Shown: positions 12,684 to 52,053 of the stretch, one piece after another
Layout: each line of letters begins with the position of its first letter
Position numbering within the stretch: the first letter of the stretch is position 1
Translations under genes and position numbers: made by a program
The notes under the pieces: generated by a model
Told to the model about the DNA's origin: nothing
Seen by the model: the letters and a program-made list of their open reading frames with translations, nothing else
Databases searched by the model: none
DNA from: an uncultured virus (IMG/VR IMGVR_UViG_2788500061_000001)
Lineage: Duplodnaviria > Heunggongvirae > Uroviricota > Caudoviricetes
Virus record (IMG/VR): IMGVR_UViG_2788500061_000001
Length of the DNA: 64,000 nt
Reading direction: 5' to 3' (one strand)

Positions 12684-12685
12684 TG

Positions 12686-17331: not shown

Positions 17332-18162
17332 CTATGCGGCCGCGTCGGCGGAATCGCTGGGGTCGTAATTCTTCTGGATTGTCCAGATTCGGAAGGCAGA
17401 GGAGAATGCGGCCAGAGCCCTGGAGCGATCCTGGTCGGACCAGATCTTGCTGAAGTAGCGTCCAGGTTGGTTCTTGTCCATGACCAGGCTGGCGACGGCG
17501 TCAATGGTCATCATTTCCTGATGCTCCATGGCCTCTGCGTATGCAGACATCTGATAGCACCATTCTTCGTAGAAGTTGGGCTTGGGCTGGCCTTTCTTGT
17601 CGTCTTTCACATACTGGCTCTTTATATCTGCCAGGACGGTTCCTATGCCCGGAATCTCAAGAAGAAGGTCCGCAGTGCCCGCGTATCCTTCGGCGACCAC
17701 GACCTTTTCAGATGCCAGTATCCGGGCGTCCGTCTCCCGGAGCCATCGCCTGAAAGCGACTACGTGGCGAGCCACGGTTCGGAATTCCGGTGAGAGCTCT
17801 CCGGTTTTTGCGAAGTGTTCAATGGCCGCATGAATCTGCTTTCCGGTGTCCGCTGCGCTGCTGGCCTCGGATTCCATATCCTCAACCACTCGCTTTGCGA
17901 AGTCTTCCGTCGGTTCATCCTTCTTACGGGGGAGGGTAAGGGAAGCCATGATAGCCTGCTCCAGCTTCCAGGACTCCAGCCCCGGCTTGGCCACAACCTT
18001 CAGTACCGTGGTAACCGATGGCAGAAGGCCAAGTTTTCGAGCGTCAGCCAAAGTGGTTGGCTTTCGGTCCTTCCGCTTTTTGTCGGCATAGGGAACGGTA
18101 TGCATCGGCTCGCCGTCCCGCGTATACCAGTGGGCATCGCTTTTCCTCTGGATCAGACTCAT
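17332..18162 (-). CDS. PD-(D/E)XK exonuclease (recombination partner)
   Basis: PSVTTVL, GKQIHAAIE, YAGTADL...LADIKS, QMSAY. Confidence 0.85.
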   Translation of the reverse strand: MSLIQRKSDAHWYTRDGEPMHTVPYADKKRKDRKPTTLADARKLGLLPSVTTVLKVVAKPGLESWKLEQAIMASLTLPRKKDEPTEDFAKRVVEDMESEASSAADTGKQIHAAIEHFAKTGELSPEFRTVARHVVAFRRWLRETDARILASEKVVVAEGYAGTADLLLEIPGIGTVLADIKSQYVKDDKKGQPKPNFYEEWCYQMSAYAEAMEHQEMMTIDAVASLVMDKNQPGRYFSKIWSDQDRSRALAAFSSAFRIWTIQKNYDPSDSADAAA

Positions 18163-19040
18163 TTGGCACCTCCAGCAGGCGCGAATAGCCCCAGACCAGG
18201 TTCTTCAGAGGGTTCTACTGCATGGGACTGCTCTTCCTGTTCCTCGGAGTCACCCGGGCGTTGCACGTTCTCCAGGGCCTGGGTCACCTGTTGGATGGCC
18301 GAGTCTGCGGCATTTAGCAGGCTCTCCTTTTCGTTTTCCGTAACGATGCCTTCCAGTTTCTGCTCGATGTAGCTTCGGATTCGTTGTAGGCGTTCCAGAT
18401 CAAGTTCGCCCATGGCCTCTTCGATACCATTGTTTGCCCTGATGAACGTTTCGGAAGGCTCGGATTGAGGTGCTTCCGGCGCCTCATTAATGGTCTTTTC
18501 CGTACGGCCAGAGCCAAATCCTTCGCCGAAATCCATTACTTCTTCGGGAACATAGAGGCCTTCGGCGACCTCCGGTGCGAGTGCCTTTACACCTTCGGAA
18601 ATTACCCGGGCGGAAAGCATTTGCCTCGGATACATCTTCCAGTTCTGCTTGTCCGTAAGACCCGCCTTTTGTGCCATCTCCATCGTCCATTTGATTGTGA
18701 TGACATTCCCCTGGCGGTCTGCGAACTCGGCCTCGCATACGCGATCGTCTCTCCGGATCCATCGCACCTGGTTTCCGGCCTTCTTGAAGTCTGCCAGCAT
18801 TGTCTGGCTCTTTAATGCCGGTCGCCCCTGGATGATGTCATAACGCTGCACTGCCTTCATCGGGTGCATGCCCGATGCCTGGCAAAGAAGCATCAACGCC
18901 ATGGCCTGAGACTGGTCTTTCATCCCAAACAGGCCGGATTTCACTATTGTGTGGGCCATCTTTTCGAGCTCCGGCAGCGAATACTGCGCCGGAAGCTCGG
19001 GCGACTGGTCCTGTCGCATTGCTATGTCTTTCTCGGACAT
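18159..19040 (-). CDS. RecT/Beta-like single-strand annealing protein
   Basis: IIQGRPALKS, AGLTDKQNWKMYPRQML, GLYVPEE; start MSEKD with GGAG SD. Confidence 0.8.
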   Translation of the reverse strand: MSEKDIAMRQDQSPELPAQYSLPELEKMAHTIVKSGLFGMKDQSQAMALMLLCQASGMHPMKAVQRYDIIQGRPALKSQTMLADFKKAGNQVRWIRRDDRVCEAEFADRQGNVITIKWTMEMAQKAGLTDKQNWKMYPRQMLSARVISEGVKALAPEVAEGLYVPEEVMDFGEGFGSGRTEKTINEAPEAPQSEPSETFIRANNGIEEAMGELDLERLQRIRSYIEQKLEGIVTENEKESLLNAADSAIQQVTQALENVQRPGDSEEQEEQSHAVEPSEEPGLGLFAPAGGAK

Positions 19041-19078
19041 ACACTCCCTCCAAATTCTAAAGTCACGCAGCGGAAACG

Positions 19079-19309
19079 CTACGGTCTGTATGTATCGATC
19101 AACTGCTGTGATTCTCGAAGATCCGGCTCCAGGCACTTCCGGCACTTGTCGTACTGGTAGAGCTTTACTCCCTTCGCCCCGCACCCGGCGCAATGCGGTT
19201 CTGCAATGGCGGACTCCAGCATATCCTGGAAGCCCGTTCCTCCGCCCGCCGAAGGGGCCGGTGCGATTGCAGGTGGTGCGGTCATTCTTTCAGTGCTCGT
19301 TACGATCAT
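19079..19309 (-). CDS. Small Zn-finger protein
   Basis: CAGC...CRKC; GGAGG SD before MIVTS. Confidence 0.55.
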   Translation of the reverse strand: MIVTSTERMTAPPAIAPAPSAGGGTGFQDMLESAIAEPHCAGCGAKGVKLYQYDKCRKCLEPDLRESQQLIDTYRP

Positions 19310-25977: not shown

Positions 25978-27857
25978 CAGAAGACCTCCAGGAAGAAAGT
26001 TCGATTGCCGTTTATGGAGGTCACCCCGACAAGATAGACCAGAGAATTCCCATCCTGGCGGATTCCCGTTATTCGCGTAGACCGGATCCGGGGGTCCGCC
26101 TCTATCTTTGCCAGGAGTCGGTCTATGTAACGGTCTTTGAAGAAGTTCTCCTGGACTTCCCCTATCTTTGCGGGGTTGCCAAAATCAGGATACATGGGGA
26201 GCCCGCCCTCCGGCGTATCGATCTGGTCGATCACATTGTTCATCAGTGCTGGCTCGCCCTCGACCACATCCAGATCTCCGTTCGCAGCCACGGCAAAATC
26301 CCTCTGGTCCGTAAGTGCCAGGTCTTCCCCGAGCACTCCCCGTTCAATATCGGCATTCGTCGGGCTGGCCGGTTGGGAGGCCCACACCTGGAGGTTATGC
26401 TCGTAGGGGATCTTGATAGATTCGCTTACGATGCCCTGCCCTCTTCTCTTCCGATTGTATGCGGCCAGAGCGGAACCCAGATCAGGGTCTTGCATGTACT
26501 TCTCTGCGAGCGATTCCCAGGTATCTCCGCCTATGGCTTTGTGGATGATGTACTGATTGTCTGTCGCCGCCTTCTTTATGTAGGCTTCCAGATCAATGAC
26601 CGCTGTTTGCGCCTCCAGCAGTTGCTCATAGTACGGTATTTCTATCAACGATTCGAAGTTCGATTCCGGGGTTGCCGCATAGGATTCCAGTGGCTGGTTG
26701 GGAGAGACGGTAATCAGTCCGAGTTCATCCATGGCGGCCTGAATTTCCTGGGCCATTTCCCGGAGACGGCGCTGGAACTCGGCTCTCGCAGAATTGGCCT
26801 TCTGAATTGCATTTTGTTCTTCTGGCTCTTCCCGAAAGCCCCGACCCACGTTGGCAAACGCTTCGGTGAAGTTGTTGGAAGCCAGACGGCCATCGCTTGA
26901 AAAGACTCCCCGCATCGTATCCCAGGAATTCTGGAGCTCGGTTCCTATCCGGGAAAGGTTCTTGAAGGCACCCGACATTCNGAGGAACCGGCCTGATAGC
27001 TCTGTNGGGAAGTTGACGATGTCCTTCAAGTCCTGCATGACCCCGCCGATTCCAGCTTCAAAATTTGCATTGAAGTACCTTTCGAGCTTGTTGGGCAGCT
27101 CGAAAGCAGTGTCCTTTTCGTCCTGTATGACGACCAATCCGATTTCCCACTTGTATGTGTTCGTATCCTGAGTGCTTCGGGAAATCTTGAAGCCATCGGG
27201 CTGCACTACCACTTCTACATGGCGCCGCCTTGCGTAATCGTGGAACATTAACGCAAAGTTGGAATAGCTGAACGGGTCTTTCTTCTCCTTGAATTTTGTG
27301 AGAATTGCGGCTGCCTGCTTATCTTCCGGTTCATAGAGAATCTTCTCATCCCATACCCCGGACATGATTGCCAGGAAATCAAAGAACTCCATNTCNCCGG
27401 ACCGGAGNCCCCCCATCCCNGGNACCGGAATGACNCTTTCCATGTANCCNACNGAGCGATCNTATAGNNTNTTNGCNGTNCCCGAGTAATCNGTNACGAG
27501 CCCCTTTGCATCGTCATAGATTGACTTGGCACCTTCAGTAACATCGCCGAATCCCAGGCCTTCCTCTCCATCATCGAAACGATCCAGGAAGGATCCNCCT
27601 TCGGAGCCCTGGGGCGGTCGAGCCAGAAAGTGAATGTGAAACTCGCCTTCCAGGGAAAGTATGTTATTGTCCGGGCCGTAATCCACCGTGGAGGACCCGC
27701 GATGACCGAAGGTGGGCATTGTGCGGACTCGAAACTTGTATTGCTCGGAGTAGCGGACTGGCCCGTTCAATAGGAAATATTCTCCCAGGGTTTCACTGGA
27801 AGGCTGTCCGTTGTCCTTTCGGGATCTGAGTTCGAATGAGAACAGATTCTCGGCCAC
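25977..27857 (-). CDS. Baseplate protein: tube-initiator-like N-terminus, LysM-like segment, C-terminal gp25-like domain
   Basis: GDTWESLAEKY (LysM-like); GDLDVVEG...TPEGGLPMYPDFG...DPRI (gp25/W-like). Confidence 0.7.
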   Translation of the reverse strand: MAENLFSFELRSRKDNGQPSSETLGEYFLLNGPVRYSEQYKFRVRTMPTFGHRGSSTVDYGPDNNILSLEGEFHIHFLARPPQGSEXGSFLDRFDDGEEGLGFGDVTEGAKSIYDDAKGLXXDYSXXXXXLXDRXXXYMEXVIPXXGMGXLRSXXMEFFDFLAIMSGVWDEKILYEPEDKQAAAILTKFKEKKDPFSYSNFALMFHDYARRRHVEVVVQPDGFKISRSTQDTNTYKWEIGLVVIQDEKDTAFELPNKLERYFNANFEAGIGGVMQDLKDIVNFXTELSGRFLXMSGAFKNLSRIGTELQNSWDTMRGVFSSDGRLASNNFTEAFANVGRGFREEPEEQNAIQKANSARAEFQRRLREMAQEIQAAMDELGLITVSPNQPLESYAATPESNFESLIEIPYYEQLLEAQTAVIDLEAYIKKAATDNQYIIHKAIGGDTWESLAEKYMQDPDLGSALAAYNRKRRGQGIVSESIKIPYEHNLQVWASQPASPTNADIERGVLGEDLALTDQRDFAVAANGDLDVVEGEPALMNNVIDQIDTPEGGLPMYPDFGNPAKIGEVQENFFKDRYIDRLLAKIEADPRIRSTRITGIRQDGNSLVYLVGVTSINGNRTFFLEVF

Positions 27858-33461: not shown

Positions 33462-34329
33462 ATGGAATTTACCCATCCCTGNCATATTATCAAAGCCGAA
33501 GAGAATTCCGGACGGCTNAAAGTTCTGATTCGAGCCTCCACTGAAGGAGAAGACCGGCACGGCGAGCGTGTCCTAAAGAGCGCGTTTGCAGACCCGGANA
33601 TGCAACGGTCNTTTTCCAGGGAAGGCTACTACGACTANAACCACATAACAGATATTCTGGACAAACAGATGAAAGGTGTCTCCGGCACCGAACTTGTGGA
33701 NCTGCAGAAGGCCAAAGCAAGNGCNATCATTGGATATCCNGATCCCGACAAGTCGTTGTTNGTCGGGGATGATGGCGTNTATTCNCAGGGGTATCTATTC
33801 GCAGANAATGAATACGTCCAGGAAATCCGCAAGGGTCTTGAATCCGGCTGGTCNGGCTGGGGNGCTTCGATCTCNGGTTTTGCGAGCCCNNNGGACCTGG
33901 AAGGCAACACTTTCAAGAAGATTGNTCCTGAANAAGATCGCAATCGCCCCGCTCCAGGAAGTCATCAATCCGGATACAAGNGTTCAACTGGCCAAGTCNA
34001 ANCTCNTTCAGNTGATNAAGGCCGGTGAGGACTACTACACCGAAGAGCAGACGGGCGCAACCGACACCTTGCCCGATACAGAAATCCGTGACCAGATAAT
34101 TCAGGATCTACAGATGCAGGTCGGTCGGCTCACGCGATTGGTCCTTTCGCAACCTTCCATGCAGGAAGCTATCGCTCGTGAAGTGGTGGATGCGATCAAA
34201 TGCGGCACCCTGCCCCTGCAACACGATCCCATAGTCAGCTTTTTGACCGATAGCTTTGGCTTTGATACGGATTTAGCCAAGCAAGTCGCCAACGGCGTAC
34301 TGCTAACAGGTAACTTCGGAGCGGCATAG
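33462..34329 (+). CDS. Prohead protease (apparent frameshift near 33925 in N-rich sequence)
   Basis: ASTEGEDRHGERV...YDxNH...ASIxG, then KIAIAPLQEVINPDT in the adjacent frame; precedes scaffold and capsid. Confidence 0.75.
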
Positions 34330-38082: not shown

Positions 38083-41000
38083 ATGCGTCGGAAATTCCTG
38101 CAAGTGTTGAAAGAACGGATGGGGGCTGCCATGGCAGGCCCCCGCTCCAGAGCGCACCTCATTCGCAAGGTCATCACAAACCGGCGGGGCCACAAGCAAA
38201 CAGTATACGTCAGGCCAGACAAGGCCGGAAGCCCACCTTCTGCCCCTCAAAAACCATCACAGTCTTCATCCTCTGTCGCGGAGGCTCGAAAGGAGTTTCA
38301 AAGAGCCGATGCCGAATTCAGTGCAGCGCTGGAAGAGGCCTATGGCAAGCAAGCGGGAGACAAGCGGTATTCTCCTGGTCCCCATCCACCTGCAGTAGAG
38401 GCTGCAAAGAAGAAACGGATGGAGGCCCAGAAGAAGTGGCATGCGGCACAAGACCAGACTCGGGCTTCAGGAAAGGATCCTCTATCCGGGGCACCTGTTG
38501 AATCCGAGCAGTCAGAAGCCTCAAACAAAGAGAAGCCGGAGCCGAGTGATGGGGAGGACAAGACAGCATCCGATTCCCCGGCAACCGCCCTCTCCTTCGT
38601 TGGTCATGATCAGATCCGGGAGCTGTCTCAGTACACAGACAAGCGCAACTACGATAGAAAGACTATCGATGGCATCAAGGCCAGCATCTTGCGGAATGGT
38701 TACAATCCGGCCTTCCCTCTCCAGGTCGATACAGACAACGGAACCTACAATATCGTTTCGGGGCACCACCGATTCACAGCGGTAAAGGAACTGGTCAGCG
38801 AAGGGAAACTACCGGACAACTTTCAGATTCCCGTCATCGTAAAGCAGTATGGAAGCAAAGGCGACCGACTTATGGCGCAAATGTCGGAGAATGTTCGCCG
38901 CACTGTCAACCCATTGGACGAGGCCCGGGCCATCGGAGAGTTAACCGAGATGGGCCACAGTGTTTCAGAAATCGCAGAAAAGACCGGAATGAATCCGGGA
39001 ACTGTCCGGCGACGCAAAGCATTGACCGGGCTGCACAGTGACCTTCAAAAGCTGTTCTAGAAAAAGGACCGAAGTCTGCCCGTAGGTATCGCGGAAGCGA
39101 TCGGAACTCATGGCCTGAATCCAGACGGGTCTAAAAACGCAACCATCCAGAACAAGGCCCACCGATTCTACAATGCCAACCGACATCGTGGATTCGGAGC
39201 TGCTGAAGTGATTAGCTACATGCAGGAGCTCAAGTCGCAGAACTCCGATCAAATGTGGTCCGTAGATGAAACCCGTACGGAAGCCGAGAAGCAAGCCGTC
39301 CAGAGCCTCGGTTCAGAAGAAAAGGCAAAGCGGAACACAGCGCAAATAGACAAATTCCTGGGTAGCGTACAGAATTCGTTTCAGCGCCTTCTCGGGGACT
39401 CTATTAGCTCTCTAAACGAATCTACTCTCAAAGAACTCTCTAACAGCCTCCTGGCCACGGAAGGCGAGTCCGGGTTTCGCTCAAAAATGGATCAGCTATC
39501 GACACTGATGAACGACCTGGAGACAGTCAAGCGTACTCTCGAGCAGAATTTCAATAAGATCAAAGAGGAATCATCGAACCATAGTCTCGCATTCGCCCGA
39601 TCAATGGCAGTGATTGAAGCCAGCCAGGACGCCATTCATGTTCTAAAGTCGGCCCATAGAGAGACACGGGTAATCGAAAAAAGCAGATTTCTGGAAGTCC
39701 TCAAGGCCAAAGGCAAATCGGCGAGGAATCGGGCTCACCTCGTGCGCAAGGTAATAACCAACAAGAAGGGGCACAAACAGACAGTTTACGTGAACCCCAA
39801 TGAAACCAACCAGGCTCAGGCGGAACAAATCGGGGAGTTCACTCTGAAACGCAGAGGGAAATTCATCGATGTCCTCGGGAATCTGTTCAAAGAATCCGGC
39901 CTGTACATGGCCTTGAATTCTCTAACCGGCAAGAAGGGGAAGCCTATCGAAGGAGAAAACGATCAGGGTAGCATTGGTGCTACTTACCCTTACTCAGTCG
40001 CCAACTATAAAAAGATCCGGGAGCAGTTGCTGGGAGTTTCCCGGGGGCCTGCCGACAACCGAGAGCAGGATTTGAGCCCTGCGGATGTCAGGAATATACC
40101 GGATGAGATAGAGTCGGAAGTCAAGGGAGATAAGGCACGATCCCTCTGGAAGCGAGCGTCCGAGCGATTCCCGAACCTGGATGCCGGAACTTTTGTGGAT
40201 CATCTGGTTGAGTATTTGCTCCACCGTGACAAATACGAAGACCTTTTTTCGCAACAGAGCCTCTTCCAGGAGCCATCGGAAACTCCGGCGAACTCTGCAA
40301 AGGACTCGGGCTCGAAAGGAACGGTTAGCACTCCGAACCCAGCACCGTTCCGGAAAGACTTGCTTCGCTTCATCCATGAGCAATGGTCCGAATCGATCCA
40401 GAGCGATCCTCGTTCAATAGAGAAGGCTGAAGAAAGGTATAATGCAGCAGAACGAGACCTTGAAGAGTCCGCCCGGGAAGCCTACGGGAATCGTTCCAGC
40501 GACATGCTGGAATACGCAAACTCCAGGGTGCATCCTCCAGAAGTTCAGGAAGACCTGGATCAACGCAACGAAGCTCGGGTTTCTCTCCTGGAAACAAGGA
40601 AGGAGTCTCAGATTCGAGAATCCCGCATAAGGGCAAGCGTCGAAACAGGTAAAGCACGGGTCGGCGTTAAGACTCAGCATGCAATCAATGAAGAGGTCCG
40701 ACAGATCCTGAAATCTGTGCCATCGGAAAAGATGACCGAGGAGCAGAAGGAACTCCTTCGTCAGTACGAAGGCTGGGGCGGGCAGACCCGAAATGATAAA
40801 ACGGATTACTCCGGCAAGGGACTTCTTTATGAGTTCTATACTCCTGAGAAGGTCGTAAACAAGTCCTGGGAGCTATTGGAGAGATATATCCCCAAAGGGA
40901 GCAAGATTCTCGAACCCGCTGCCGGGACCGGACGATTCGCGGAGGGACGATCAGACTACAGTTTCGACATGCTGGAGGTAGACGGCACATCAAGCCAGAT

Positions 41001-44000
41001 TGCCGGTATTCTGCACCCGGATGCAAATGTCCGGAAGGGTCAATTCGAAGAGCTGTTCCTGGATAATCGGAACCGATCCAAGAAGCAATACGATGGTCCT
41101 CTGTACGATGCCGTGGTAACGAACCCGCCCTACGGCGAAATGGGAGGAAAATACAAGGCATCCGAAGGTCGAGGCTGGCAGCGCTATGAGGAATACTTCC
41201 TCCATCGCTCCCTCGACACCGTGAAGGAAGGCGGCATAGTTGCAATGGTCGTTCCTTCCAATTTTCTCCGAAAGGGGAAAACCAAAGCAAAGGAGAAGAT
41301 ATTCAACAAAGCAGAACTCCTGGAAGCCCACCGATTGCCGAATGGCGCTTTTGCTCATACGGACATCGGCACGGATCTGATCATCCTTAGAAAGAATACT
41401 ACGGAGCACAAAGACAATGCGATTGCCTTCGAGGATGAATACTTCAAGCGGAACCCGAATCATCTTCACGGAGAGGAGCACGAGACGACAGATCGCTGGG
41501 GCAAGCCAGACCTGCGGACAAAGGGCAATATTGATACCTTTCTCAATCATAGACCGGCGGCCCCCAAGGAAATGTCAAAAGCCCACAAGGATGCAATCTC
41601 CAGGGGATTGATCGGGAACCAGAACGCAAAGGGGAAGCACAAGGTAGCCAGTTCAAATCGGAAGACGGTTAAGAAGAAAGCCGTCCGAAATGCGACGAGG
41701 AAAACGAAGAATACGGCGAGAGAAAAGCAGAGTCCTCCCCCGAAGCTCCTGAATCAGGCGGAGTTCAATAGGAAATACGGGCTGAACTTCAGCGAATCGG
41801 ATGTAGAATTGCTGAAAAGTACCAATGCTCTCGGATACATTGATCCCCAGACGCCATTCGATCCGAAGTCGATGTCATTCCACAATGGCGGTGCAATGCC
41901 CGACTACCTGTATGCCACGGGCGATATTTATGAAAAGCTGAAGCAACTGGAATCGGACAGGGAAGAGATCATCGAGAAAGGTGGCCTGCAGCTATACCAG
42001 AAGCAGCGCCAGATGCTGGAAGATGCCATTCCGGAGCAAACCCCGCTGAAGGACGTCGTTCTGGATCCAATCGACCCTTTCTTCAAGACAGTCACCCTGG
42101 AAGACGGAAGTTCCCTTCTCGACCGGTTCAAGGAATGGGTCGGTGATCTGGACTACGAGACCTTTATGGACTACGCGGCCTCAGCCAGCGACGTTCGGGC
42201 TTACTGTGATGCCATACCTGTCCGGGGCAACAACAAGAGCCTGAATGAGAGAATCCGGCGAGAACGCCGGGAATTGGCAATGAAGCTGGCAGACAGGTTC
42301 GTCAAGGAATCCCTGGGTGAGGCCGAGCAGAGTCAGATCCAGCAGTCCTGGAATGAACGCTTCAACGCCTACGTTCAGGTGGATCCGGCGAAGGTGCCGA
42401 TTCCGATTGAGGGATTGAACGAAAAGTTCAAGGGTAAAGACTATGAATTGAGGGATGTCCAGCATCGATTCATTGCAAATTTCCTTTCAAAAGGCATCGG
42501 TTGCGCAGCCCACGAGGTGGGGCTGGGAAAAACCATGACCGGCATTATTGCCACAGTCTCCAATATGCAAATGGGACGGTCGAAGAGGCCTCTGTTCGTG
42601 GTCCCAACCTCGGTATTACCGAATTGGGAGGCCTCCGTTAAATCGCTTTATCCAAATCTCACGGTGAATACAATCGGCACCCCCGAACTGAATCAAATGA
42701 CCGAAGGCGGCAAGAAACTCGAGATCGAAGAAGGGTCGGTGACTGTAATGTCTTACGATGCGTTCCAGAGGATGGGCTTCAGCGAAGAGCGATTCAATGA
42801 ACTCACAAAAGACCTCCAGGATGCTCACAAGCCCTATGCAGAAGAACCGGCCACCAAGCGAGGGAAGGCAAAGAAAGAGGAGGAATATGAAGCCCTGGTA
42901 TCGAGAGCGAGAACGGGTACGTATAATGAAATACTATTCGACGAAGCGGGCTTTGACTCTCTGACCGTGGACGAAGCGCACAACTTCAACAATATCTTTG
43001 CTGACGTAAAACAGGAGAAGGATCAAGACACCGGGAAGGTCAAGACCCAGGCAAATGAATTCTCCGGTATCATTGGAGGGGCGACGAGCGACCGTGGGCT
43101 AAAAATGTGGCTGGCAGCCCAGCACGTGCTCAAGTCCAACGACAACCGCAATGTGATGATGCTCACAGCCACTCCCTTTACGAACAATCCGCTTCAGGTC
43201 TACTCCCTACTCTCCACGATGGCCAGGGAACGCCTCCAGAAGATGGGGATCTACAACGTAAAGGATTTCGTGGCGGCCTTTGTAGAGACTCAGACCGAAA
43301 AGGTTCTGGAGCCCAACGGAAAAATCAAAGAGAAACAGACGGTCCGCCGTTTCAAGAATGCCCATGCCTTTGCCTCGCTAATCAATGAATTCTTCGACCG
43401 AAAAACCGGAGAGGATGCGCATATCAAACGGCCGGACCTGGTAGAGAAGGAGATCGTTCTTCCTTCTAACAAGGAAATGGATCAGATCCGCCAGAGCCTG
43501 GAGAACTATTACGATATGGCTTTCCACCCCGATCCTGATGAGCGAGATCCCTCCGCTGCACTAAGGTCCATGACCATGCAGCAAAACCTGAATATCAGTC
43601 CGGCCCTCGTAAACGACTATCAATTCAACGATAACCGACAGGATTTCGTCGAACGCAGTCCCAAAATGAAATTTGTGGCCAAATCCGCTGCAGAATACTA
43701 CAAACGGATGAAGGAAGCCCAGGGGAATGCTCCGGGCCAGATCATCTTTCTACCCCGAGGGGTTGAGTATTTCAATGAAGTGAAGGCTTACATGGTTTCC
43801 CAGGGAATCCCGGAGGATGCCATCGAGATCATGACTCCCAAGGAGAAAGGGAAAAAGGCCAGGAGCAAGGAAGCAAAGGCGAAGGGGCAAAGTCGATTCG
43901 AAGAAATCAAGTTCGACTTCAATGATCCGAATGGCAAAACGAAAATCATAATTGGCTCCGATACGATCCAGGAAGGAGTATCCCTCCAGAAAAATACGGG

Positions 44001-44859
44001 GGTCATGTATAACTGCAGCCTGGCATGGAATCCGACATCGAACGAACAAAAAAAGGGCCGTGGATGGCGCCAGGGGAACACCCAGGAGCGTTGCCACATG
44101 TTTTACCCGGTCATGGAGAACTCCGTCGACACAAAACTGTACCAGAAGCATGCCGAAAAGGTTTCCCGAATCAACGATATCTTTAAGGCAACTGGATCCC
44201 CTTTCATCGAAACCACGGACATCAATCCTGATGAGCTGAAATACGAGATCGTGACCGACCCGGAGAAAAAGGCCAGGCTGGTTGCATCGGAAGATGAGAC
44301 GCAGCGTCTGGCCGCCATCAAGGATAAGACCACCGACCGGAACATTCTCCTATCAACCCTGAATCGAGCAGAAAATCTGGACCGACGCATTAGGGATGCG
44401 GAAGAGTCACTGAAGCGGTCACAGCGCTGGGCCGAAATGTACGGCAAGAACTCAACACTTGGTCGATTCCATGCGGAGGATGTAAACCGCATCAAATCAA
44501 GACTCAGTCGATTGAAGCGCGACAAAGAAGAGCATGAGACAATGATGCAGCAGAAGGGCATGACCGTGGAGAAGCTCCGTTCTCAGGCGGAGGCTCTGGA
44601 AAACGAGATCGCTCAAATGAAAGCAGATTCAACCAAAAAGAAGGAAGAGCTTGAATCAGAACTGGTAGAGCGCTACCGACGAGAAAAGGAAGAATATGAG
44701 AAGAGCCGTCCCAACAAGTCGATCGACCAGATGGTGGATGAGCATGTCTCAAAGCTGGTTGACTCTTCCCTCGGCAAGTCGGTATATAAGAGTCGAATCT
44801 ACGAAATAATACGGGGAGGGAGAATGCATGAACGCAGACGTAAAGCAGCAGCTCTTTGA
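38083..44859 (+). CDS. darB: DarB-like polyvalent protein: tag, ParB-N/HTH, N6-adenine MTase and SNF2 helicase; one in-frame TAG at 39058-39060
   Basis: IVSGHHRF/SENVRR (ParB); EFYTP, LEPAAGTG, NPPY (MTase); HEVGLGKT, VDEAH, LTATP, QKKGRGWRQGN (SF2). ORFs 38083 and 39208 share one frame and the gap between them is open. Confidence 0.85.
38149..38217 (+). repeat. Cargo-tag motif copy 1
   Basis: Encodes RAHLIRKVITNRRGHKQTVYVRP. Confidence 0.9.
39730..39798 (+). repeat. Cargo-tag motif copy 2
   Basis: Encodes RAHLVRKVITNKKGHKQTVYVNP. Confidence 0.9.
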
Positions 44860-45077: not shown

Positions 45078-46496
45078 ATGAATGGCATTCATATTCTCAA
45101 GGCGGCCAACAGAGCGCATCTGGTCCGCAAAGTCATTACGAATAAGAAAGGCCGCCGCCAGACCGTTTACGTAAACCCGGAACAGGAAAAGTCGAAAGAA
45201 AAAGGTCGAGGCCAGTCTGGTAAGGCATCCGAAAAAAAGGCCGAGGACAAGGAAGCCGGATCCTCCCGCCCCGACCAGTCCGCCCATAACAAAGAATCTC
45301 AACCGAGGAACAACGCGCCCGAGAAGAGCGGACAGAAAAAAGAGGGCACCGGGAAGAAACCGAAAGAACGTAAGTACAAAGACCCAGGGGTTAATCAGAT
45401 TTGGGCTCCTGCCGATGTTGAGGCAGCCAAGGCCCAAGCATTCTACAACATTGTAACCGACCCAGACATCGGTGATCCGATACCTCGCCCGGGTCGCTGG
45501 AATGAGGGGATTCCCGAGGGGATGCCCTCCGAAACCTGGGAAGAGCACTTCACCGGCCATCCAGATGAAGGCGGAAAGCCAAAGGAGGGCCGGGAGTTTC
45601 TCCACAACTTGATCAAACAGAGATTCCTCGAAGGGAAACCATCGGTGCCGTCCGGCGAAAAACCCGTTGCCATATTGATGATGGGCGGCCCGGCATCCGG
45701 GAAGTCGACCATGGTTAAGTCCGCTGGCCTGGAGAGTATGGAGGATTTCGTCGTCGCTGATGCTGATATAGTGAAGAACATGATTCCGGAATATCGAGTC
45801 GGGGTCAACAATCGCCTGAAACAGGCCGCATATATGGCACATGAGGAGTCCAGCTATCTGGTGAAGCAGATCAGAGAAGAAGCCATCAATACCCGGAAGA
45901 ACCTGGTTATCGATGGGACAGGTTCAAAGACAGCATCCTACGAAAAGAACATCCAGAAGCTCCGGGACCAGGGATACGAAATCAAGCTTATGATGGCTGA
46001 CACCCCGATGGATGTTGCTCTGAATCGCGCCAAACAGCGAGCGAGAAAAACCGGCCGCTACGTCCCAGACGGTGTTCTGAAAGGTGCTTATGCCGGTATC
46101 CCGAGCGGGTTCCAGAAGATCGCAGAGATGGTTGATTCTGCAGCCATCTATGATACAAACGTGAAGCTGGGAGAGCCTTCACGGCTTGTCTATACAAAGA
46201 CGAATGCCGCTGAAACCATCCATGACTCCGAGCATTATTCGAAGTTCCAGAGTAGGATCGGAAAGTCCTGGCTGTTTCAGATCATCAAGTCCAGACTCTC
46301 CCGTGAACAACGAATTGCTGTAACGAAAGGAGGAGAAGATATGCAGGAGAAGAAGCAAAAGCGAACCGATGACGAGCTACTACAGGCAATGGCCCGCGAC
46401 GAATGGGACTTCACCGAAGAAGAAATGAAACGAATTGAGGCCATGGAAGACGTGGCGGACGAAGGGGAAGGAGTGGAAATGGTAGTGGATGACTGA
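45078..46496 (+). CDS. Zeta-toxin family P-loop kinase with N-terminal cargo tag and acidic C-tail
   Basis: MGGPASGKST, VADADIVK, LVIDGT, RARKTGRYVP. Confidence 0.85.
   Translation: MNGIHILKAANRAHLVRKVITNKKGRRQTVYVNPEQEKSKEKGRGQSGKASEKKAEDKEAGSSRPDQSAHNKESQPRNNAPEKSGQKKEGTGKKPKERKYKDPGVNQIWAPADVEAAKAQAFYNIVTDPDIGDPIPRPGRWNEGIPEGMPSETWEEHFTGHPDEGGKPKEGREFLHNLIKQRFLEGKPSVPSGEKPVAILMMGGPASGKSTMVKSAGLESMEDFVVADADIVKNMIPEYRVGVNNRLKQAAYMAHEESSYLVKQIREEAINTRKNLVIDGTGSKTASYEKNIQKLRDQGYEIKLMMADTPMDVALNRAKQRARKTGRYVPDGVLKGAYAGIPSGFQKIAEMVDSAAIYDTNVKLGEPSRLVYTKTNAAETIHDSEHYSKFQSRIGKSWLFQIIKSRLSREQRIAVTKGGEDMQEKKQKRTDDELLQAMARDEWDFTEEEMKRIEAMEDVADEGEGVEMVVDD
45111..45179 (+). repeat. Cargo-tag motif copy 3
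   Basis: Encodes RAHLVRKVITNKKGRRQTVYVNP. Confidence 0.9.
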
Positions 46497-46546: not shown

Positions 46547-47989
46547 ATGTTTGGTCTTGAAAGCCTTATTGACATACTGAAAGCTCGCGGCGCAGCTCTT
46601 GGTGAGATCCACCATTGGGCCAATGGCGATTATATGAAAACTCCGCAGGGCTGGAAGGAAGTCAAGAAAGACGTCCGGAAGCATCTGGACAAGCTCACAA
46701 AACGTATGGCTCCCGCAGACGAGAAGGCCCGCGAACACCGCTTCGCCATGGAGGACCTTAAGTCCAGGATTGACGGGATCAAGAGCAAACTCAGCGAGCA
46801 CCCCGATTCAGATTACTACAAAAATGAGCTCAAAGAGGCGGAGAAGCGCCTGATATTCCATAGCGTAAAGGCCGAACAAGTTGGAGGACGTGCCCGACGC
46901 CGTGCCGAGGATTATTTGGATCAGGTCCGCCAGTATCTAAAGGACCATCACGAAACCCAAATAAACGCCAAATATGCTGACGCACTGAAGAAGCTCGATG
47001 AGCGGATGGCTGCACTTGAAGAAGGTGGGGACCGTTACAATCAAATAATGGAGAACCATCGAAAGCTGGTAGGCTCTGAATACGAGGATGAGGACGATGC
47101 TGAGTCAGCAGCAGAAGATGAGATAGAGATCGAAAAAGAGATTATCGAGGATAAGCAAACGGACCTGCACGACCTGATCTGGGAGAAAGTTGGGAACCGT
47201 CATGATCAGATCGATGAACGTTTAGACAAATTGCTGGAAGACAGTGAAGAGGATACCCGCGAAGCATTTGAAACTCGTCTCGATGACTTCGAGGACATCA
47301 AGACCCGCTACCCAACCAGCATAGACCGGGACCCAGTTACTCCGATAAGCAAGGTAAGGGAGAGAATCAGGAAGAACCTCGGTTTTCGCAAGCGGTTGGC
47401 CGACCGATTGAATCTGAAATCCAACCTGGGCCGGATGCTCGCAGTATTCAAAGCCGGAAACCGGCAGGGTCTTGTTAAGAAGGTCATCACAAATCAGGCT
47501 GGGCACCGGCAGACGGTCTGGATTCGGCCGGACGAAAGCCCCGGCCCTCGCCCCGTAAAAAAGGATAGTGGCCCATCCTCCAAAAAACCCGGTGCAGGCT
47601 CAGTAAAGCGCACAATGGCGCCCCAGCGCGGCGGAATGCCGTCCAAGAAGCCCATGGCCGCAAAACCCGCCGAAGATCATGCTGTTGTCCAGCAGCGGCA
47701 TGAGGATTTTGAAAAGCGCGCCCAGGAGCAGCGAAAACGAAAAGGACCTAATGCAAGCATTGATGCCGCCGAAGCTGGCGATATAGTGCAAATCACCAAC
47801 CCGAAATCGAGAGTCCGCAACCAAATAGGAAAAGTGGTTCAGAAACTGGAGGACGGATTGAAGGTCATGATGGCCAACGGGATTTTCCAGGATTTCACTT
47901 TCGATGAACTGTCCTTCGCGAAGTCCCGGCCGCTCGGGTTTCGACCGGATGGAGTTCAAATCCTGAAAGCCCGTATCGAGTTGAACTGA
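46547..47989 (+). CDS. Coiled-coil putative internal virion protein with cargo tag and C-terminal KOW/SH3-like domain
   Basis: ILKA...VFKA...FAKS...ILKA sites; GDIVQITN...IGKVVQK. Confidence 0.75.
   Translation: MFGLESLIDILKARGAALGEIHHWANGDYMKTPQGWKEVKKDVRKHLDKLTKRMAPADEKAREHRFAMEDLKSRIDGIKSKLSEHPDSDYYKNELKEAEKRLIFHSVKAEQVGGRARRRAEDYLDQVRQYLKDHHETQINAKYADALKKLDERMAALEEGGDRYNQIMENHRKLVGSEYEDEDDAESAAEDEIEIEKEIIEDKQTDLHDLIWEKVGNRHDQIDERLDKLLEDSEEDTREAFETRLDDFEDIKTRYPTSIDRDPVTPISKVRERIRKNLGFRKRLADRLNLKSNLGRMLAVFKAGNRQGLVKKVITNQAGHRQTVWIRPDESPGPRPVKKDSGPSSKKPGAGSVKRTMAPQRGGMPSKKPMAAKPAEDHAVVQQRHEDFEKRAQEQRKRKGPNASIDAAEAGDIVQITNPKSRVRNQIGKVVQKLEDGLKVMMANGIFQDFTFDELSFAKSRPLGFRPDGVQILKARIELN
47462..47530 (+). 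repeat. Cargo-tag motif copy 4
   Basis: Encodes RQGLVKKVITNQAGHRQTVWIRP. Confidence 0.85.
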
Positions 47990-48017
47990 AAACTGGCAAA
48001 GAACGAACCTATTCAAT

Positions 48018-48107
48018 GAAATGATCCGCGCTTCTGCGGGGAAAAGTCTTGGCCATGCTCGCGTTTCCGGAAACCCTCCGGTTCACCCCCGCTCGGGCGG
48101 GGAAATG
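48018..48107 (-). CRISPR. Type I-E-like mini CRISPR array (repeat, 32-nt spacer, degenerate repeat); no cas genes in window
   Basis: Minus strand CATTTCCCCGCCCGAGCGGGGGTGAACCG (48107-48079), spacer 48078-48047, CTTTTCCCCGCAGAAGCGCGGATCATTTC (48046-48018); 29+32 = 61-nt period; repeats 18/29 identical. Confidence 0.75.
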
Positions 48108-48182
48108 GCTTTCGGTCATGAAACGCTGCCGGATCCAGAGACAAAGGAAGGCTGAAATCAAGCAACTGAAACTCGTTCGTGA

Positions 48183-48207
48183 CCGATAATCAGGAACGGC
48201 CCACAAT
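48183..48207 (+). promoter_or_regulatory. Putative late promoter (tail operon)
   Basis: CCGAT-N14-CACAAT-N6-GTG(48214). Confidence 0.7.
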
Positions 48208-48213
48208 CAGAGC

Positions 48214-48990
48214 GTGGCTGATCCCCGCCCGACAATTCTGACCGTTCATATTGCTCCGCCGGAGAATACGGTGAAGCTCTGGCTCCAGGGCAATCTCCCT
48301 CTGACCGGACTCAAAACACGCAACGTAGATGCGCCTGTAATCAATGGCCACCCACTGTTTGTCGAAGGGATCTCTGAGTCTGGATTCGACCGCAATTTTC
48401 CCCGAGTTGGGGTGGAGTGGACCAGAGATATTCGAGAAGACTATATAGGGCACAATTTCCGCCGTTTTAAGCCTACCGATCGTTTTCGGGCCGCCCTTCA
48501 TAACTACACTTCCTCCCTTCCACGTGAATCCCGTGCAGCTCCGGAGGCTGCGGCAGAGGAACTCGGTGAAGCCGACATCGTCGAAACCTGGCTGCACATG
48601 GTTCAATCTGAAGTCATCATTGCTGGCTTCACATCCGGAGGTGCAGGGCGTCCTACTCTCCGCATACTCTATGAAACGGTGGAATCGCTGATGGCTCCGA
48701 TGGCCCAGGATATCATGGAGACATTCCCCGGAGTCAAGGTTGATATCGATGAAACCCATGAGGTGAACATTGCCTCGAACCAATTCGCAAGCCCCGTCTG
48801 GGGATTCGAGATTCCGGTCAAACTACGCCAACCGCGCAGAGTCTTCCGCAAAAAGCCAGCCCACCTCTTCCCCGATATTACGGGCTTTGATATACACATG
48901 GAAGATAGCCGCACGGTTTTCAAGACCCGAGGGCTATTCGACTTCGATGCTGGGTACAGCGTCGTTCAAGGAGAATCCAATGGCCAGTGA
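48214..48990 (+). CDS. Tail terminator/completion-like protein
   Basis: Upstream of sheath; FPRVGVE motif. Confidence 0.55.
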   Translation: MADPRPTILTVHIAPPENTVKLWLQGNLPLTGLKTRNVDAPVINGHPLFVEGISESGFDRNFPRVGVEWTRDIREDYIGHNFRRFKPTDRFRAALHNYTSSLPRESRAAPEAAAEELGEADIVETWLHMVQSEVIIAGFTSGGAGRPTLRILYETVESLMAPMAQDIMETFPGVKVDIDETHEVNIASNQFASPVWGFEIPVKLRQPRRVFRKKPAHLFPDITGFDIHMEDSRTVFKTRGLFDFDAGYSVVQGESNGQ

Positions 48991-49201
48991 GCAGAAGGCG
49001 GAGCAGGCGCAGGACAAACCCAGGGAACCTGCGAAGCAAACAGCGAAGCGGCGCAAATACCCGCCCATGGAGCAATTCCTGACGGACCTTGAAAAGAAAA
49101 AAGGTCCGATCCCGGCCAAAGTAAAGGAAGTATTCCGCGCCCGTTGCGGATCCCGCAAGGACTTCGAAGCCGTATGGGCCGAACTCTGGAGAGGTAAGTA
49201 A
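48980..49201 (+). CDS. Small basic protein preceding sheath
   Basis: AAGGAG SD before MASEQK; TAATG coupling to sheath. Confidence 0.65.
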   Translation: MASEQKAEQAQDKPREPAKQTAKRRKYPPMEQFLTDLEKKKGPIPAKVKEVFRARCGSRKDFEAVWAELWRGK

Positions 49202-50976
49202 TGCCAACAAGAACAGTAGAATTTTTGGGACGCGGATTCATTGTTCCAGGATCTTACTCCGCATTCCGCGCCAAACCACAGTCCGGCGGGATCTCTCCGG
49301 ACTTCAATACGCAAATACTAATCGGCGAAGCGAACAACGGCTGGAATGCTCTGGATACCAGCCTTCCCATGCTCAAGCGAGTGATGGAATTCACTTCCTT
49401 TGAGGAAGCCAAGCAAGTTCTGGTTTCCGGTCCGCTACTCGATGCCATCAAAGCTGCCTTCTCCCCTTCCAGGGATAGCAGGTTCGCCGGTGGTCCATTG
49501 CTTATTCGAGCACTGAATCTGGCGGTCAATACAAGGGCCTCCGCAAGTCTGGACAACACCGCTGCGTCCCAATACTCCGCTAAGTATGTTACTCCCGGTC
49601 CCCGGGGCAATGAATCGCGAATCAGGATCTCGGCTGCGGGCGATTCAGTAGAGGTCGGCGACTCCAACGGCATCCAATCCGCAACCGGCCTCGATGCCCA
49701 GGATATTACAATCACATACAGCGGAGATGCTACCACAGCAGAGCTTTCCTTTGATGGATCCAACCTTACAACAACTCTCACCGGCCAGACCGATGGGACC
49801 GAAAACCTTGATATTCCGGTCGATAGCGTTCCAACCCTGGCCGACCTGGCCGTCCGCATCAATTCGATGGCCGGTTACAATGCCGTTGTCGACAGCTCAC
49901 CGGATATTCTTACCAGAAACCTGGACCATGTAAGTGGAGTCGATGCCAAGGCAGGGGCCGTGGTCAAGGCTCTCCTTTATCGCCAGGAACAGGCATTATT
50001 CAATCTCGGAAACGTCGAATTGGAGATTACCGGAGCAAGGAAGCCCCTGGCTGACACCGTGGGATTCGTATACCTCTCGGGTGGCGCATCGACTGCAGCC
50101 CAGCCCACGGACTACACAGATGCAATCGATATGCTGGAGAAGGTGCGAGGCTTCTTCATCAATCTCTGTTCCACCAATCAAGGTGCCGGGGCGTATCTCA
50201 CGGATTTCATCATCAAGTCCAACGGACCGGAAGGAGCCGATGAACGATTCGGAGGATTCGGTGCTGACCGTACCGACGATTTCACTACCCGGTGCGACAA
50301 CGCAAAGCAGATCAACAGTGAGTATATGGTCTACGGCCTTTCCCCGGTAACTGTTCGAGGGGCAGACGGTATTGCCACAAAGACCTATGATGGATGGCTT
50401 CTGGCGGTAATCCACAATGCAATCAAAGCGTCCTCAAACATGCGGGAATCCGCCCTCTACAAGGATCTGAACATTGAAGATGCGCCGGAGATCCCTGGAA
50501 CCGGCGACATCCGCAGAGCCATCCGGTCCGGGGGCCTTGTTGTGGATCGCAAACCGAACAATGGCCCATTCAAGATCACCTCGGATGTCACCACCTATCA
50601 GGCAACAAATCAGATTCTCAACAAGGCTTCAACTACCTGCACGGCCCTCGCACTGAACAAAGACCTGAGAGAATCTCTTCAGGATGCATTTCTCGGTGAA
50701 GTACCAACCGATCCAGATGCCTTCGGAACAACTCTCACGGATTCAGACATTCGCACTTTCATCGAGCTGAAATTCGACCAGGACTACGTCCGGAACTTCG
50801 GCTGGCTAACCCGTAACGTTTATACCGGCCAGCCAGCCTGGAGACGCGACTTCCTTATCAGGCGCGACGGCAACGCAATCTACTTCGAGTTCCCGGACGG
50901 GAAGCTCGTCACGTCGCTCGATTACATTTTCAGTCTGCTCAATCTGGACGTTGTCCGGGGGAGCGCGCAATCATAA
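49201..50976 (+). CDS. Contractile tail sheath protein
   Basis: 591 aa; IVPGSYS N-terminus, PGPRGN, YLSGG, ITSDVTTY. Confidence 0.9.
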   Translation: MPTRTVEFLGRGFIVPGSYSAFRAKPQSGGISPDFNTQILIGEANNGWNALDTSLPMLKRVMEFTSFEEAKQVLVSGPLLDAIKAAFSPSRDSRFAGGPLLIRALNLAVNTRASASLDNTAASQYSAKYVTPGPRGNESRIRISAAGDSVEVGDSNGIQSATGLDAQDITITYSGDATTAELSFDGSNLTTTLTGQTDGTENLDIPVDSVPTLADLAVRINSMAGYNAVVDSSPDILTRNLDHVSGVDAKAGAVVKALLYRQEQALFNLGNVELEITGARKPLADTVGFVYLSGGASTAAQPTDYTDAIDMLEKVRGFFINLCSTNQGAGAYLTDFIIKSNGPEGADERFGGFGADRTDDFTTRCDNAKQINSEYMVYGLSPVTVRGADGIATKTYDGWLLAVIHNAIKASSNMRESALYKDLNIEDAPEIPGTGDIRRAIRSGGLVVDRKPNNGPFKITSDVTTYQATNQILNKASTTCTALALNKDLRESLQDAFLGEVPTDPDAFGTTLTDSDIRTFIELKFDQDYVRNFGWLTRNVYTGQPAWRRDFLIRRDGNAIYFEFPDGKLVTSLDYIFSLLNLDVVRGSAQS

Positions 50977-51004: not shown

Positions 51005-51439
51005 ATGCCAGCACCCAAACTTGAAAATCCAGAGGTCCTCACTGGCTGTGATGTAACCATCAAGATGAACGGATCCCCGGTCGGCTTCGGGAAGAACGTC
51101 GACATCGAAGAGAATGTAAACCAACAACCAGTGGAGGCCATCGGCTACTGGAAGCCACGGGGGTTCAAATCGACCCGCTGGGATGGGACCCTCTCCATGG
51201 AGTTTCACATCCTTACTAAAAGGGGAACCGAGGGCGTAATACCGATCGACACCAGTTCCCCGACGGCCGCTTCTGCTGGCTTCTTCATGGAGTTCAACGA
51301 AAAGTCCACTGGAAAGCGCGTGGCAACTGCAATCGGGCACATTAACACCAGGGGATTCAANATCTCCAACAATGANCTGTCTGGCCAACGNTGCCAGTTC
51401 GTCCTCCGAGATATCGACTACAAGGAAGGNTATAACTAA
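51005..51439 (+). CDS. Tail tube protein
   Basis: 144 aa right after sheath; VGFGKNVDIEE...PVEAIG. Confidence 0.85.
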   Translation: MPAPKLENPEVLTGCDVTIKMNGSPVGFGKNVDIEENVNQQPVEAIGYWKPRGFKSTRWDGTLSMEFHILTKRGTEGVIPIDTSSPTAASAGFFMEFNEKSTGKRVATAIGHINTRGFXISNNXLSGQXCQFVLRDIDYKEXYN

Positions 51440-52053
51440 TGCATCAGAACATTCTGAACCCAAAGCGTGACTTNACNATCANNGTCCAGGGCTNCACTCT
51501 GTTCGGNCTNATNCCGCTGCCCAAAGAAGAGTTGGCNATCGATCTNAATGTATCCCGNAGACTNGANGGNCANCCNCTNCAGAGNATNCCGAANCAGACN
51601 TATCAATACGTNNTGATGGCAGAAACCCTNAACNTTGCNATCCGNGAAAANCCNGANGCNCTGGCCAATCTNNCCGACTGGATGGACTTTCCAGACCCGG
51701 AATTCGTGACAGAGGCCTATGAGCAATACATCAAGAAGCAGTCCGAGTTCTATGCGGGGTTAAAAAAAAATAGTGGGGGAGGATCTACAGAAACACCTGT
51801 ACAACCCGNACGTAATGATGGACCTGTTCATCCTCAACCGGTACAAAACTCTCCCGTCCAGCCAGGGACTGGACAACCTGTATCCGGAACAGAAGTGGTT
51901 CCTGATCGCGGCGGAGTCCCTGCTGGGGGACATGTCCAGCATAACCAANCGAGCCCAGGCTTCCCTGCGTCTCCAAATGTTAGAGTCCCTCAAGGATCCC
52001 CTGGAAATCCTGCCGAAGGGAATGGCCAGCAGTATCTCCCGGGCGGGAATTGA
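51439..52053 (+). CDS. Tail assembly chaperone (gpG-like)
   Basis: After tube; A9 run at 51762-51770; many Ns. Confidence 0.7.
   Translation: MHQNILNPKRDXXIXVQGXTLFXXXPLPKEELXIDXNVSXRXXXXXXQXXPXQXYQYXXMAETXNXXIXEXXXXLANXXDWMDFPDPEFVTEAYEQYIKKQSEFYAGLKKNSGGGSTETPVQPXRNDGPVHPQPVQNSPVQPGTGQPVSGTEVVPDRGGVPAGGHVQHNQXSPGFPASPNVRVPQGSPGNPAEGNGQQYLPGGN

Follow-up and report, generated by a model that had tools for sequence, protein, structure and literature searches.

In a 64,000-nucleotide (nt) stretch of DNA from an uncultured Caudoviricetes virus (IMG/VR record IMGVR_UViG_2788500061_000001; "the window" denotes this whole stretch), we analyzed a small CRISPR element at positions 48018-48107. It occupies a 224-nt gap separating two plus-strand genes (46547-47989 and 48214-48990) and reads, on the minus strand, as an intact repeat of 29 nt (R1) followed by a spacer of 32 nt and then by another, degenerate repeat (R2). 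The spacer matches one gene (gene C) of a three-gene cassette that sister elements carry at the same locus and that is missing from the array-bearing genome. Judged by its sequence, this is a mini-array of type I-E, lacking both leader and cas genes, that was captured by a circular phage-plasmid of the ParA/ParB type, and on balance we lean towards its being a weapon against competing sister elements, one that would be effective in hosts possessing a type I-E system.

Anatomy and type I-E identity of the array

The original prediction for this locus, made from the letters alone, had described a minus-strand repeat, a 32-nt spacer, and a decayed second repeat at the 29 + 32 period canonical for type I-E, placed between a cargo cluster and the tail genes. 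Each of these features was confirmed: a cas-less, one-spacer unit of the I-E type lies between the cargo cluster and the sheath/tail genes (Table 1), R2 starts exactly 61 nt past the start of R1, and arrays from the same bacterial family have a period of 61, occasionally 62, nt. Given this repeat geometry and the usual course of I-E processing, and provided that Cas6e cleaves every stem at its 3' base, a single mature CRISPR RNA (crRNA) of 61 nt is predicted. No Rfam family reached its gathering score in the window; a match to Xoo8 near the site, seen only at E ≤ 10, was dismissed as spurious.

R1 has the properties of a type I-E repeat, i.e., a length of 29 nt, a G+C stem of 6-7 base pairs (bp) closed by a 4-nt loop (the hairpin folds at -12.7 kcal/mol), and an 8-nt handle ending in AACCG. 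Its 26-nt core occurs only once in the 4.87-Mb genome at ≤3 mismatches, and a reversed-pattern control gave 0 occurrences. A covariance model was trained on 30 different repeats, of which 12 came from host arrays with linked cas genes and 18 from arrays of at least 3 repeats in IMG/VR, this element being excluded. R1 scored 34 bits (E = 1.1e-7) with this model, which is biased towards R1 because its viral training repeats, all from true multi-copy arrays, had been fetched by an R1-derived pattern; the next match on either strand of the 64-kb window had an E-value of 0.21. R1 also agrees with all 16 invariant columns of the repeat alignment (A2). The repeats closest to it (24/29 identity) belong to arrays in two genomes (G006 and G025) from other genera of the same bacterial family, and among 42 genomes of that family, arrays with a 61-nt period were found in G006 (34 repeats matched), G025 (63 repeats), and G026. 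More specifically, the G025 array adjoins genes for Cse1, Cse2, Cas7e, Cas5e, Cas6e, and Cas1 (Pfam calls), has an A+T-rich leader ahead of its first repeat, and ends in a degenerate repeat. The positions of this leader and of the degenerate terminal repeat set the orientation in which ...GAACCG is the 3' end of the repeat, and the neighboring cas genes indicate that repeats 24/29 like R1 belong to working-type I-E loci. Thus, the comparison with real I-E repeats that the original prediction had called for returned the expected similarity, and R1 is, by its sequence, a genuine type I-E repeat.

The repeat status of R2 follows from its register with R1 and from its likeness to it. Overall, the two repeats agree at 18/29 positions, a level reached by 9 of the 127,944 29-mers in the window. 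Most of this agreement falls within the first 21 nt (16/21), i.e., the part retained as the 3' hairpin on the preceding crRNA, and among 127,960 window 21-mers only R1 and R2 reach that value; only 2 of the 8 bases of the 3' handle agree. Substitutions affect 1 of 12 stem bases versus 10 of 17 bases elsewhere (one-sided Fisher test, P = 0.007), and the R2 hairpin folds at -7.2 kcal/mol with one C.C stem mismatch. The terminal repeats of the family arrays likewise decay at the 3' end. We also examined 40 loci in IMG/VR at which just one I-E repeat is intact, a set that includes one copy of the present element. In 19 of them, a 29-mer resembling the repeat (17-28/29) follows 59-63 nt downstream, while 17 appear solitary, so the architecture of repeat, spacer, and degenerate repeat recurs in IMG/VR. 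The two repeats of our element differ at 11/29 positions, while the spacer and its target differ at 4/32. As R2 has diverged from R1 far beyond the spacer from its target, the unit was probably not made by duplicating a repeat on the phage, but would have been captured with its terminal repeat already degenerate.

The sister cassette and the spacer target

For the target search, we scanned with the spacer carrying N at every sixth base, as those bases are unpaired in I-E R-loops; Cascade is reported not to pair every sixth crRNA base (PMC4678831). In IMG/VR and the metagenome set, the scan returned identical copies of the element only (L013, L088), and in the genome set it returned a match in L089, an 82-kb contig of a metagenome-assembled genome titled Leptospiraceae bacterium, which shares 90% and 97% identity with the window over its two flanks. 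Homology with L089 stops at window position 47979 and resumes at 48173, and the breakpoints against a second sister locus (L012) agree. The intervening 193 bp of the window (47980-48172) are allelic to a 1143-bp insert of L089 that holds three minus-strand genes, namely, A (84 amino acids [aa], weak helix-turn-helix), B (~106 aa), and C (~108 aa). At this place, the cassette is also present in the IMG/VR contig from which L012 comes and in the copies of the element from four further host-genus species (G035, G036, G039, and G040), the G039 cassette being identical to that of L089. For proteins B and C, neither Pfam nor PHROG nor PADLOC gave a family, the PDB contained no match by sequence, and the atlas provided no lead; they fell into 2 and 5 clusters, respectively, in a set of 5.8 billion proteins. 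A more distant locus (G038) retains A (50% aa identity) and C (67%), which indicates that the cassette is ancestral and the array allele derived.

In each of the five close sisters, the protospacer is part of gene C and is read in frame 0. It matches the spacer at 28/32 positions in G039/L089 (mismatches at 6, 12, 18, and 30), at 28/32 in L012, G040, and G036 (mismatches at 6, 15, 18, and 30), and at 26/32 in G035 (mismatches at 3, 6, 12, 18, 24, and 30), each with AAA at the position of the protospacer-adjacent motif (PAM); in the 65% aa relative from G038 the match drops to 22/32, with ten mismatch positions and GTT at the PAM position. By our own arithmetic, a 28/32 match is expected by chance ~4e-10 times in a 1.15-kb insert. 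All G039/L089 mismatches fall at Cascade-unpaired positions, an outcome that the search pattern forces for this match. In contrast, the L012, G040, and G036 protospacers each have one mismatch at a paired position, outside the seed; such matches would fail the pattern, and they were therefore found independently of it. Taken together, the five close sisters mismatch the spacer at 7 different sites, every one of them a third-codon position, and the changes are synonymous except for a Glu to Asp at position 3 in G035. This distribution points to divergence of a coding gene under constraint rather than to decay of the spacer. The Glu to Asp change, which falls in the seed, may be a CRISPR escape mutation or plain divergence.

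In gene C, the strand paired by the array crRNA would be the template strand, the one that I-E prefers. The AAA at the PAM position is a lysine codon, for which AAG would be synonymous. In E. coli, an AAA PAM leads to interference or to strong priming, depending on the spacer, and some genera naturally use AAA and AAN as their I-E PAMs (PMC8482600); as far as sequence can tell, PAM and strand are both compatible with type I-E. In E. coli, the last G of the I-E repeat derives from the PAM; since the final base of R1 is likewise G, the protospacer from which the spacer was taken probably carried a G at position -1. The sampled sisters all have A there, which would point to PAM escape or to an unsampled source. 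The original prediction had allowed for a crRNA directed against a competitor, and this branch is directly supported by the 26-28/32 matches to a sister phage-plasmid gene at the allelic locus; at the PAM position, where it proposed to look for an AAG/ATG-type motif, the five close sisters have AAA.

The carrier offers this spacer no target. Its genome contains no homologue of A, B, or C, the only tblastn trace being the translated spacer itself, and the full protospacer that the original prediction could not see in the window is lacking from the rest of the genome as well (longest match, 13 nt). Two small open reading frames (ORFs) spanning the array (50 and 65 aa) were dismissed, as their likeness to gene C is limited to 12 spacer codons. 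The spacer flanks show no likeness to gene C, save for a 12-nt word, CAGTTGCTTGAT, found upstream of R1 (window 48152-48163, minus strand) and just downstream of gene C in L089 (~1248-1259, minus strand); it may be microhomology from the replacement event or chance (E = 0.011).

Table 1. Positions of the array and of its flanking features in the window
Feature	Position	Strand	Details
R1, intact 29-nt type I-E repeat	48107-48079	minus	CATTTCCCCGCCCGAGCGGGGGTGAACCG; 5 nt, 6-bp stem, 4-nt loop, 6-bp stem, 8-nt 3' handle GTGAACCG
Spacer, 32 nt	48078-48047	minus	GAGGGTTTCCGGAAACGCGAGCATGGCCAAGA; same sense as gene C coding strand
R2, degenerate terminal repeat	48046-48018	minus	CTTTTCCCCGCAGAAGCGCGGATCATTTC
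Predicted mature crRNA, 61 nt	48026-48086	minus	8-nt 5' handle, 32-nt spacer, 21-nt 3' hairpin
Stretch upstream of R1, 65 nt	48108-48172	minus	this allele only; no leader motif or predicted promoter
Trailer downstream of R2, 38 nt	47980-48017	minus	this allele only; self matches only
Upstream flank gene, 480-aa ORF	46547-47989	plus	last of cargo cluster; conserved in sisters
Downstream flank gene, 258-aa phrog_4666 protein	48214-48990	plus	PHROG match; conserved in sisters
Tail sheath gene after phrog_4666 gene	49201-50976	-	PHROG match

Possible functions of the array and the host context

The portogloboviruses SPV1 and SPV2 carry comparable virus-borne arrays, which are cas-less, intergenic, and limited to 1-2 spacers; these spacers hit close relatives near the array locus, the carrier's own target being mutated or deleted, and heterotypic superinfection exclusion via host Cas proteins has been proposed as their role (Medvedeva et al. 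2019, PMC6858448). Targeting of adjacent genes of close relatives, rather than of the carrier, is reported for viral mini-arrays more widely (PMC6858448, PMC11656645, PMC8616872), including some spacers of phage and prophage mini-arrays that, as here, have no leader (Faure et al. 2019, as cited in PMC6858448, PMC8616872, and PMC11656645). Our element has one spacer, lies in a viral genome, carries none of the cas genes searched for, and matches relatives but not its carrier. This agreement with published cas-less viral mini-arrays in anatomy, target, and self-sparing deletion favors an inter-element weapon. The parallels have limits: SPV1 and SPV2 are archaeal, with host-like, promoter-bearing leaders and hosts with matching CRISPR-Cas (PMC6858448), whereas this array is bacterial, leaderless, and of the I-E type, has a degenerate second repeat and an exact swap for the target cassette, and comes from a genus in which no cas genes were found. 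Likewise, the repeats of the leaderless phage arrays are described as identical or very similar to those of the host CRISPR (Faure et al. 2019, as cited in the same three papers), whereas the nearest repeats to R1 are the 24/29 matches in other genera, and no array was found in the sampled genomes of the host genus. At the ICP1 anti-defense locus, CRISPR-Cas or an Odn nuclease are alternative occupants, depending on the strain, but there a complete I-F system acts against a host island (PMC11656645), and here a one-spacer array is aimed at the alternative allele. Notable about this array are, in our view, the exact array-for-target allelic swap, its place on a bacterial I-E phage-plasmid, and a sampled genus without detected CRISPR-Cas.

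As a weapon, the array would work as follows. The unit would be transcribed from the minus strand, and in a cell with a type I-E system Cas6e would cut the transcript into the single crRNA of 61 nt. Once it had taken up that crRNA, Cascade would base-pair with the sister's gene C on the template strand, and Cas3 would then destroy an incoming or co-resident sister, or the encounter would prime adaptation against it. The carrier would be spared because it lacks the cassette. Sister elements would be expected to compete inside one cell, given that the carrier encodes ParA/ParB-type proteins, a replication initiator, and an Ant anti-repressor and yields no match to an integrase family (see below). 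The spacer itself shows that a host with a type I-E system must, at some point, have sampled an allele of gene C from this lineage. Contact with such hosts is also indicated by a relative in G026, a genome with a complete I-E system: a 46%-identical phrog_4666 homologue (L096, G026:C1:153908-154630), around which a 3.7-kb locus contains no I-E repeat, suggests that the wider phage group meets I-E hosts.

A number of findings weigh against this interpretation. With regard to the target, the PAM position reads AAA, not AAG, in all five close sisters, and the G035 protospacer has a mismatch at seed position 3. With regard to the hosts, the original prediction supposed a host Cascade that could be borrowed, and none was found: Cas6e, Cas7e, and Cas1 were not detected in the window's genome (92.9% complete), nor were Cas7e, Cas1, and Cse1 in any of seven genomes of the host genus (0/7 each), several of which are in 4-20 contigs. 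None of Cas1, Cas6e, Cas7e, and Cse1, the four families covered by our searches of genome and genus (Cas3, Cas5e, and Cse2 were not searched there), lies on the element's contig (C1). The same searches, the one for Cas7e in particular, find I-E in 5/42 family genomes and are thus sensitive enough; an E. coli control gave no signal for Cas6e, Cas7e, and Cse1. Similarly, the covariance model found no I-E-like repeat in six other genomes of the genus (150 candidates scored in each), and the repeat, which by the original prediction might mark the host, does not do so: its nearest matches are those at 24/29 in other genera, and no repeat within 2 mismatches of R1 occurred in 189 other genomes of the class or in a 400-genome sample of the phylum, sets that did not sample host diversity at the strain level. 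None of the 132 unique spacers of the family I-E arrays matches the phage, the longest matches (17 nt at phage loci and 20 nt in the host genome) being at chance level; family spacers therefore provide neither a host link nor a PAM.

Expression and distribution give further grounds for caution. A promoter and terminator scan of 47700-48500 called no sigma-70-like site on the minus strand near the array and no terminator-like site at it on either strand. The 65 nt upstream of R1 lack both the cTTTTAGy junction with the repeat and the TTGACT box common to the family leaders, and they match their own copies only. The 32 nt just upstream of R1 were considered as a relic spacer or repeat and rejected (7/29 repeat likeness by hand count, and again own-copy matches only). 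R2 alone gave no match at E ≤ 10 with the full-length covariance model, and its C.C stem mismatch may make 3'-end processing poor. The array is confined to one sub-lineage (the window, L011/L112, and L088), in which it is identical; 13 other related loci contained no repeat, and no reciprocal arrays were found in the sisters or the genus. Conservation of the repeats in relatives, put forward as a check with the original prediction, thus does not extend beyond identical copies. Two 151-nt records from one RNA library cover 47854-48004 and 48026-48176 (depth 2, no strand information). They are the sole records on a 3-kb stretch, for which DNA carry-over is possible, and they give at most a weak hint of transcription. 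Among the other RNA libraries, X20 covers parts of the upstream gene only and X22 covers nothing, uncovered parts being uninformative. The exact allele is present in 18 DNA runs from 5 studies, all flagged as possible sources and hence not independent evidence.

The main rival of the weapon is an inactive relic, which we consider a real but lesser possibility: the unit would have been picked up once from an I-E array, e.g., by recombination in an I-E host immunized against gene C, and would now be a functionless passenger, so that what counted was the loss of the cassette, as an escape from targeting, and not the gain of the array. The host genus without Cas1, Cse1, or Cas7e, the missing leader and promoter, a degenerate R2 that the model does not recognize, and confinement to a single sub-lineage, with no sequence variation in which selection could be tested, are all consistent with such a passenger, and leaderless phage mini-arrays are suggested to come from recombination with host arrays (PMC6858448). 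Against it, R1 fits every invariant column of real repeats, the changes in R2 avoid the stem, the spacer is exactly 32 nt, and the target differences, all at third-codon positions, are not random decay. Moreover, a simple crossover between spacer and protospacer would have left a fragment of gene C at the spacer, and none is present; nor does any repeat or findable spacer occupy the 32 nt upstream of R1. That the transcript instead acts as an RNA anti-CRISPR (Racr) or decoy, mainly sequestering the Cas6e and Cas7e that an I-E host supplies and thereby shielding the phage-plasmid from host immunity, with the target incidental, appears quite unlikely to us. Racrs, including RacrIE1 and RacrIE2, resemble this element as cas-less repeat mimics on mobile elements, often near anti-defense genes; any abundant crRNA competes for Cas proteins, and a non-targeting crRNA also lowers interference (Camara-Wilpert et al. 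2023, PMC10651486). The array likewise adjoins anti-restriction-type cargo (DarB-like), and 17/40 of the single-repeat loci in IMG/VR appear solitary. However, Racrs are described as solitary repeats just after a promoter, without a targeting spacer (PMC10651486). Here, the repeat is not alone: a complete spacer of 32 nt and a further repeat in register come after it, specific targets of that spacer exist at the allelic locus, no promoter was found directly upstream, in contrast to the described solitary repeat units, and the sampled hosts have no detected I-E system to inhibit.

We give still less credence to a regulatory crRNA-like RNA (crlRNA), with which Cascade would bind at or near gene C without cutting and repress the cassette of a co-resident sister. 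Described crlRNAs pair partially with promoter regions, whereas the match here is near full length (28/32), leaves the seed intact in 4/5 close sisters, and falls in a coding region and not in a promoter. In favor of regulation, AAA as the PAM, together with the mismatches, might make cleavage less efficient, and degenerate-repeat mini-arrays encoding crlRNAs, viral ones included, are described in two preprints (bioRxiv 10.1101/2024.10.29.618823 and 10.1101/2023.03.03.530964). Chance hairpins, or a terminator between the two plus-strand operons, unrelated to CRISPR, would account for the three palindromic stretches in the 224-nt gap and for a 12-nt palindrome in the spacer, but this explanation is effectively refuted by the R1 model E-value (1e-7), the exact 29 + 32 + 29 register, the 28/32 spacer match to sister genes (expectation, ~4e-10), and the lack of a terminator-like call on either strand.

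A further proposal, which we regard as improbable, is that the array is a natural homing drive among phage-plasmids that converts the sister's cassette allele into the array allele: damage done by Cascade and Cas3 to the cassette of a co-resident sister would be repaired from the array-bearing genome, rather than merely killing the sister. The array does sit at the locus of its own target, with flanks 89-97% identical to those of the sisters, and the carrier encodes a RecT-like annealing protein and an exonuclease. If true, homing would explain why the spacers of viral mini-arrays often target genes adjoining the array, a proximity called unexplained by Medvedeva et al. (PMC6858448); where "homing" appears in PMC8616872, it denotes other things. 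The exact co-location of array and target makes such allele conversion testable.

The locus is an unusually clean bacterial case of CRISPR use between viruses, in which target, frame, PAM position, swap, and self-sparing deletion can be read from five sisters. It raises the question of what a mini-array does on an element whose sampled hosts have no detected CRISPR-Cas, and the answer bears on how long captured units outlast their usefulness, as well as on the part, if any, that strain-variable I-E systems play when the phage-plasmids of marine bacteria compete.

The carrier phage-plasmid and its gene content

The first 50 nt of contig C1 reappear 99 nt from its end, and this terminal overlap indicates a complete genome of ~74.9 kb, circular or terminally redundant. 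The element is present in 5/6 other species of the host genus. Genes for terminase, portal, major head, sheath, baseplate, fiber, and amidase lie in the window; the remainder of the contig encodes ParA-like and ParB-like proteins (ParA/ParB-type genes at L110 1680-3169, minus strand), a replication initiator, the Ant anti-repressor, and a RecT/exonuclease pair, and none of the scanned ORFs matched a PHROG annotated as integrase. The 480-aa ORF flanking the array has 89-97% nt identity in the sisters, and its sole family match, to phrog_4162, is weak; the phrog_4666 protein on the other side has 98% aa identity in G035, G036, G039, G040, and L012. A blastn search (distant setting) of 46547-50976 against annotated phages and plasmids gave no match.

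The cargo cluster comprises a 1883-aa DarB-like methylase/helicase, a protein with a zeta-toxin domain, and proteins of unknown function. The DarB-like gene (39208-44859, plus strand) encodes N6-methylase, SNF2/ResIII helicase, and Helicase_C domains and matches DarB-like antirestriction PHROGs (phrog_10089, 4e-70). The product is probably a packaged anti-restriction protein, presumably comparable to one carried by phage P1. Ahead of it lies a gene for a ParB-like/phrog_4272 protein (38083-39060, plus strand). The zeta-toxin kinase domain (PF06414, 8.5e-33) belongs to a 472-aa protein (45078-46496, plus strand) that also matches a "minor head protein" PHROG and may be a virion-borne kinase within the cargo cluster. 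Elsewhere in the window, two minus-strand stretches (11856-13519 and 17332-19193) hold two adjacent DNA methyltransferase genes and the genes for the RecT-like annealing protein and its exonuclease. Finally, the window contains 143 single N's, mostly confined to a few genes and often 3 nt apart, with clusters at 13169-13223, 15017-15505, 27393-27597, 33482-34017, and 51361-51673; these look like masked or ambiguous third-codon polymorphisms, i.e., strain heterogeneity in the assembly.

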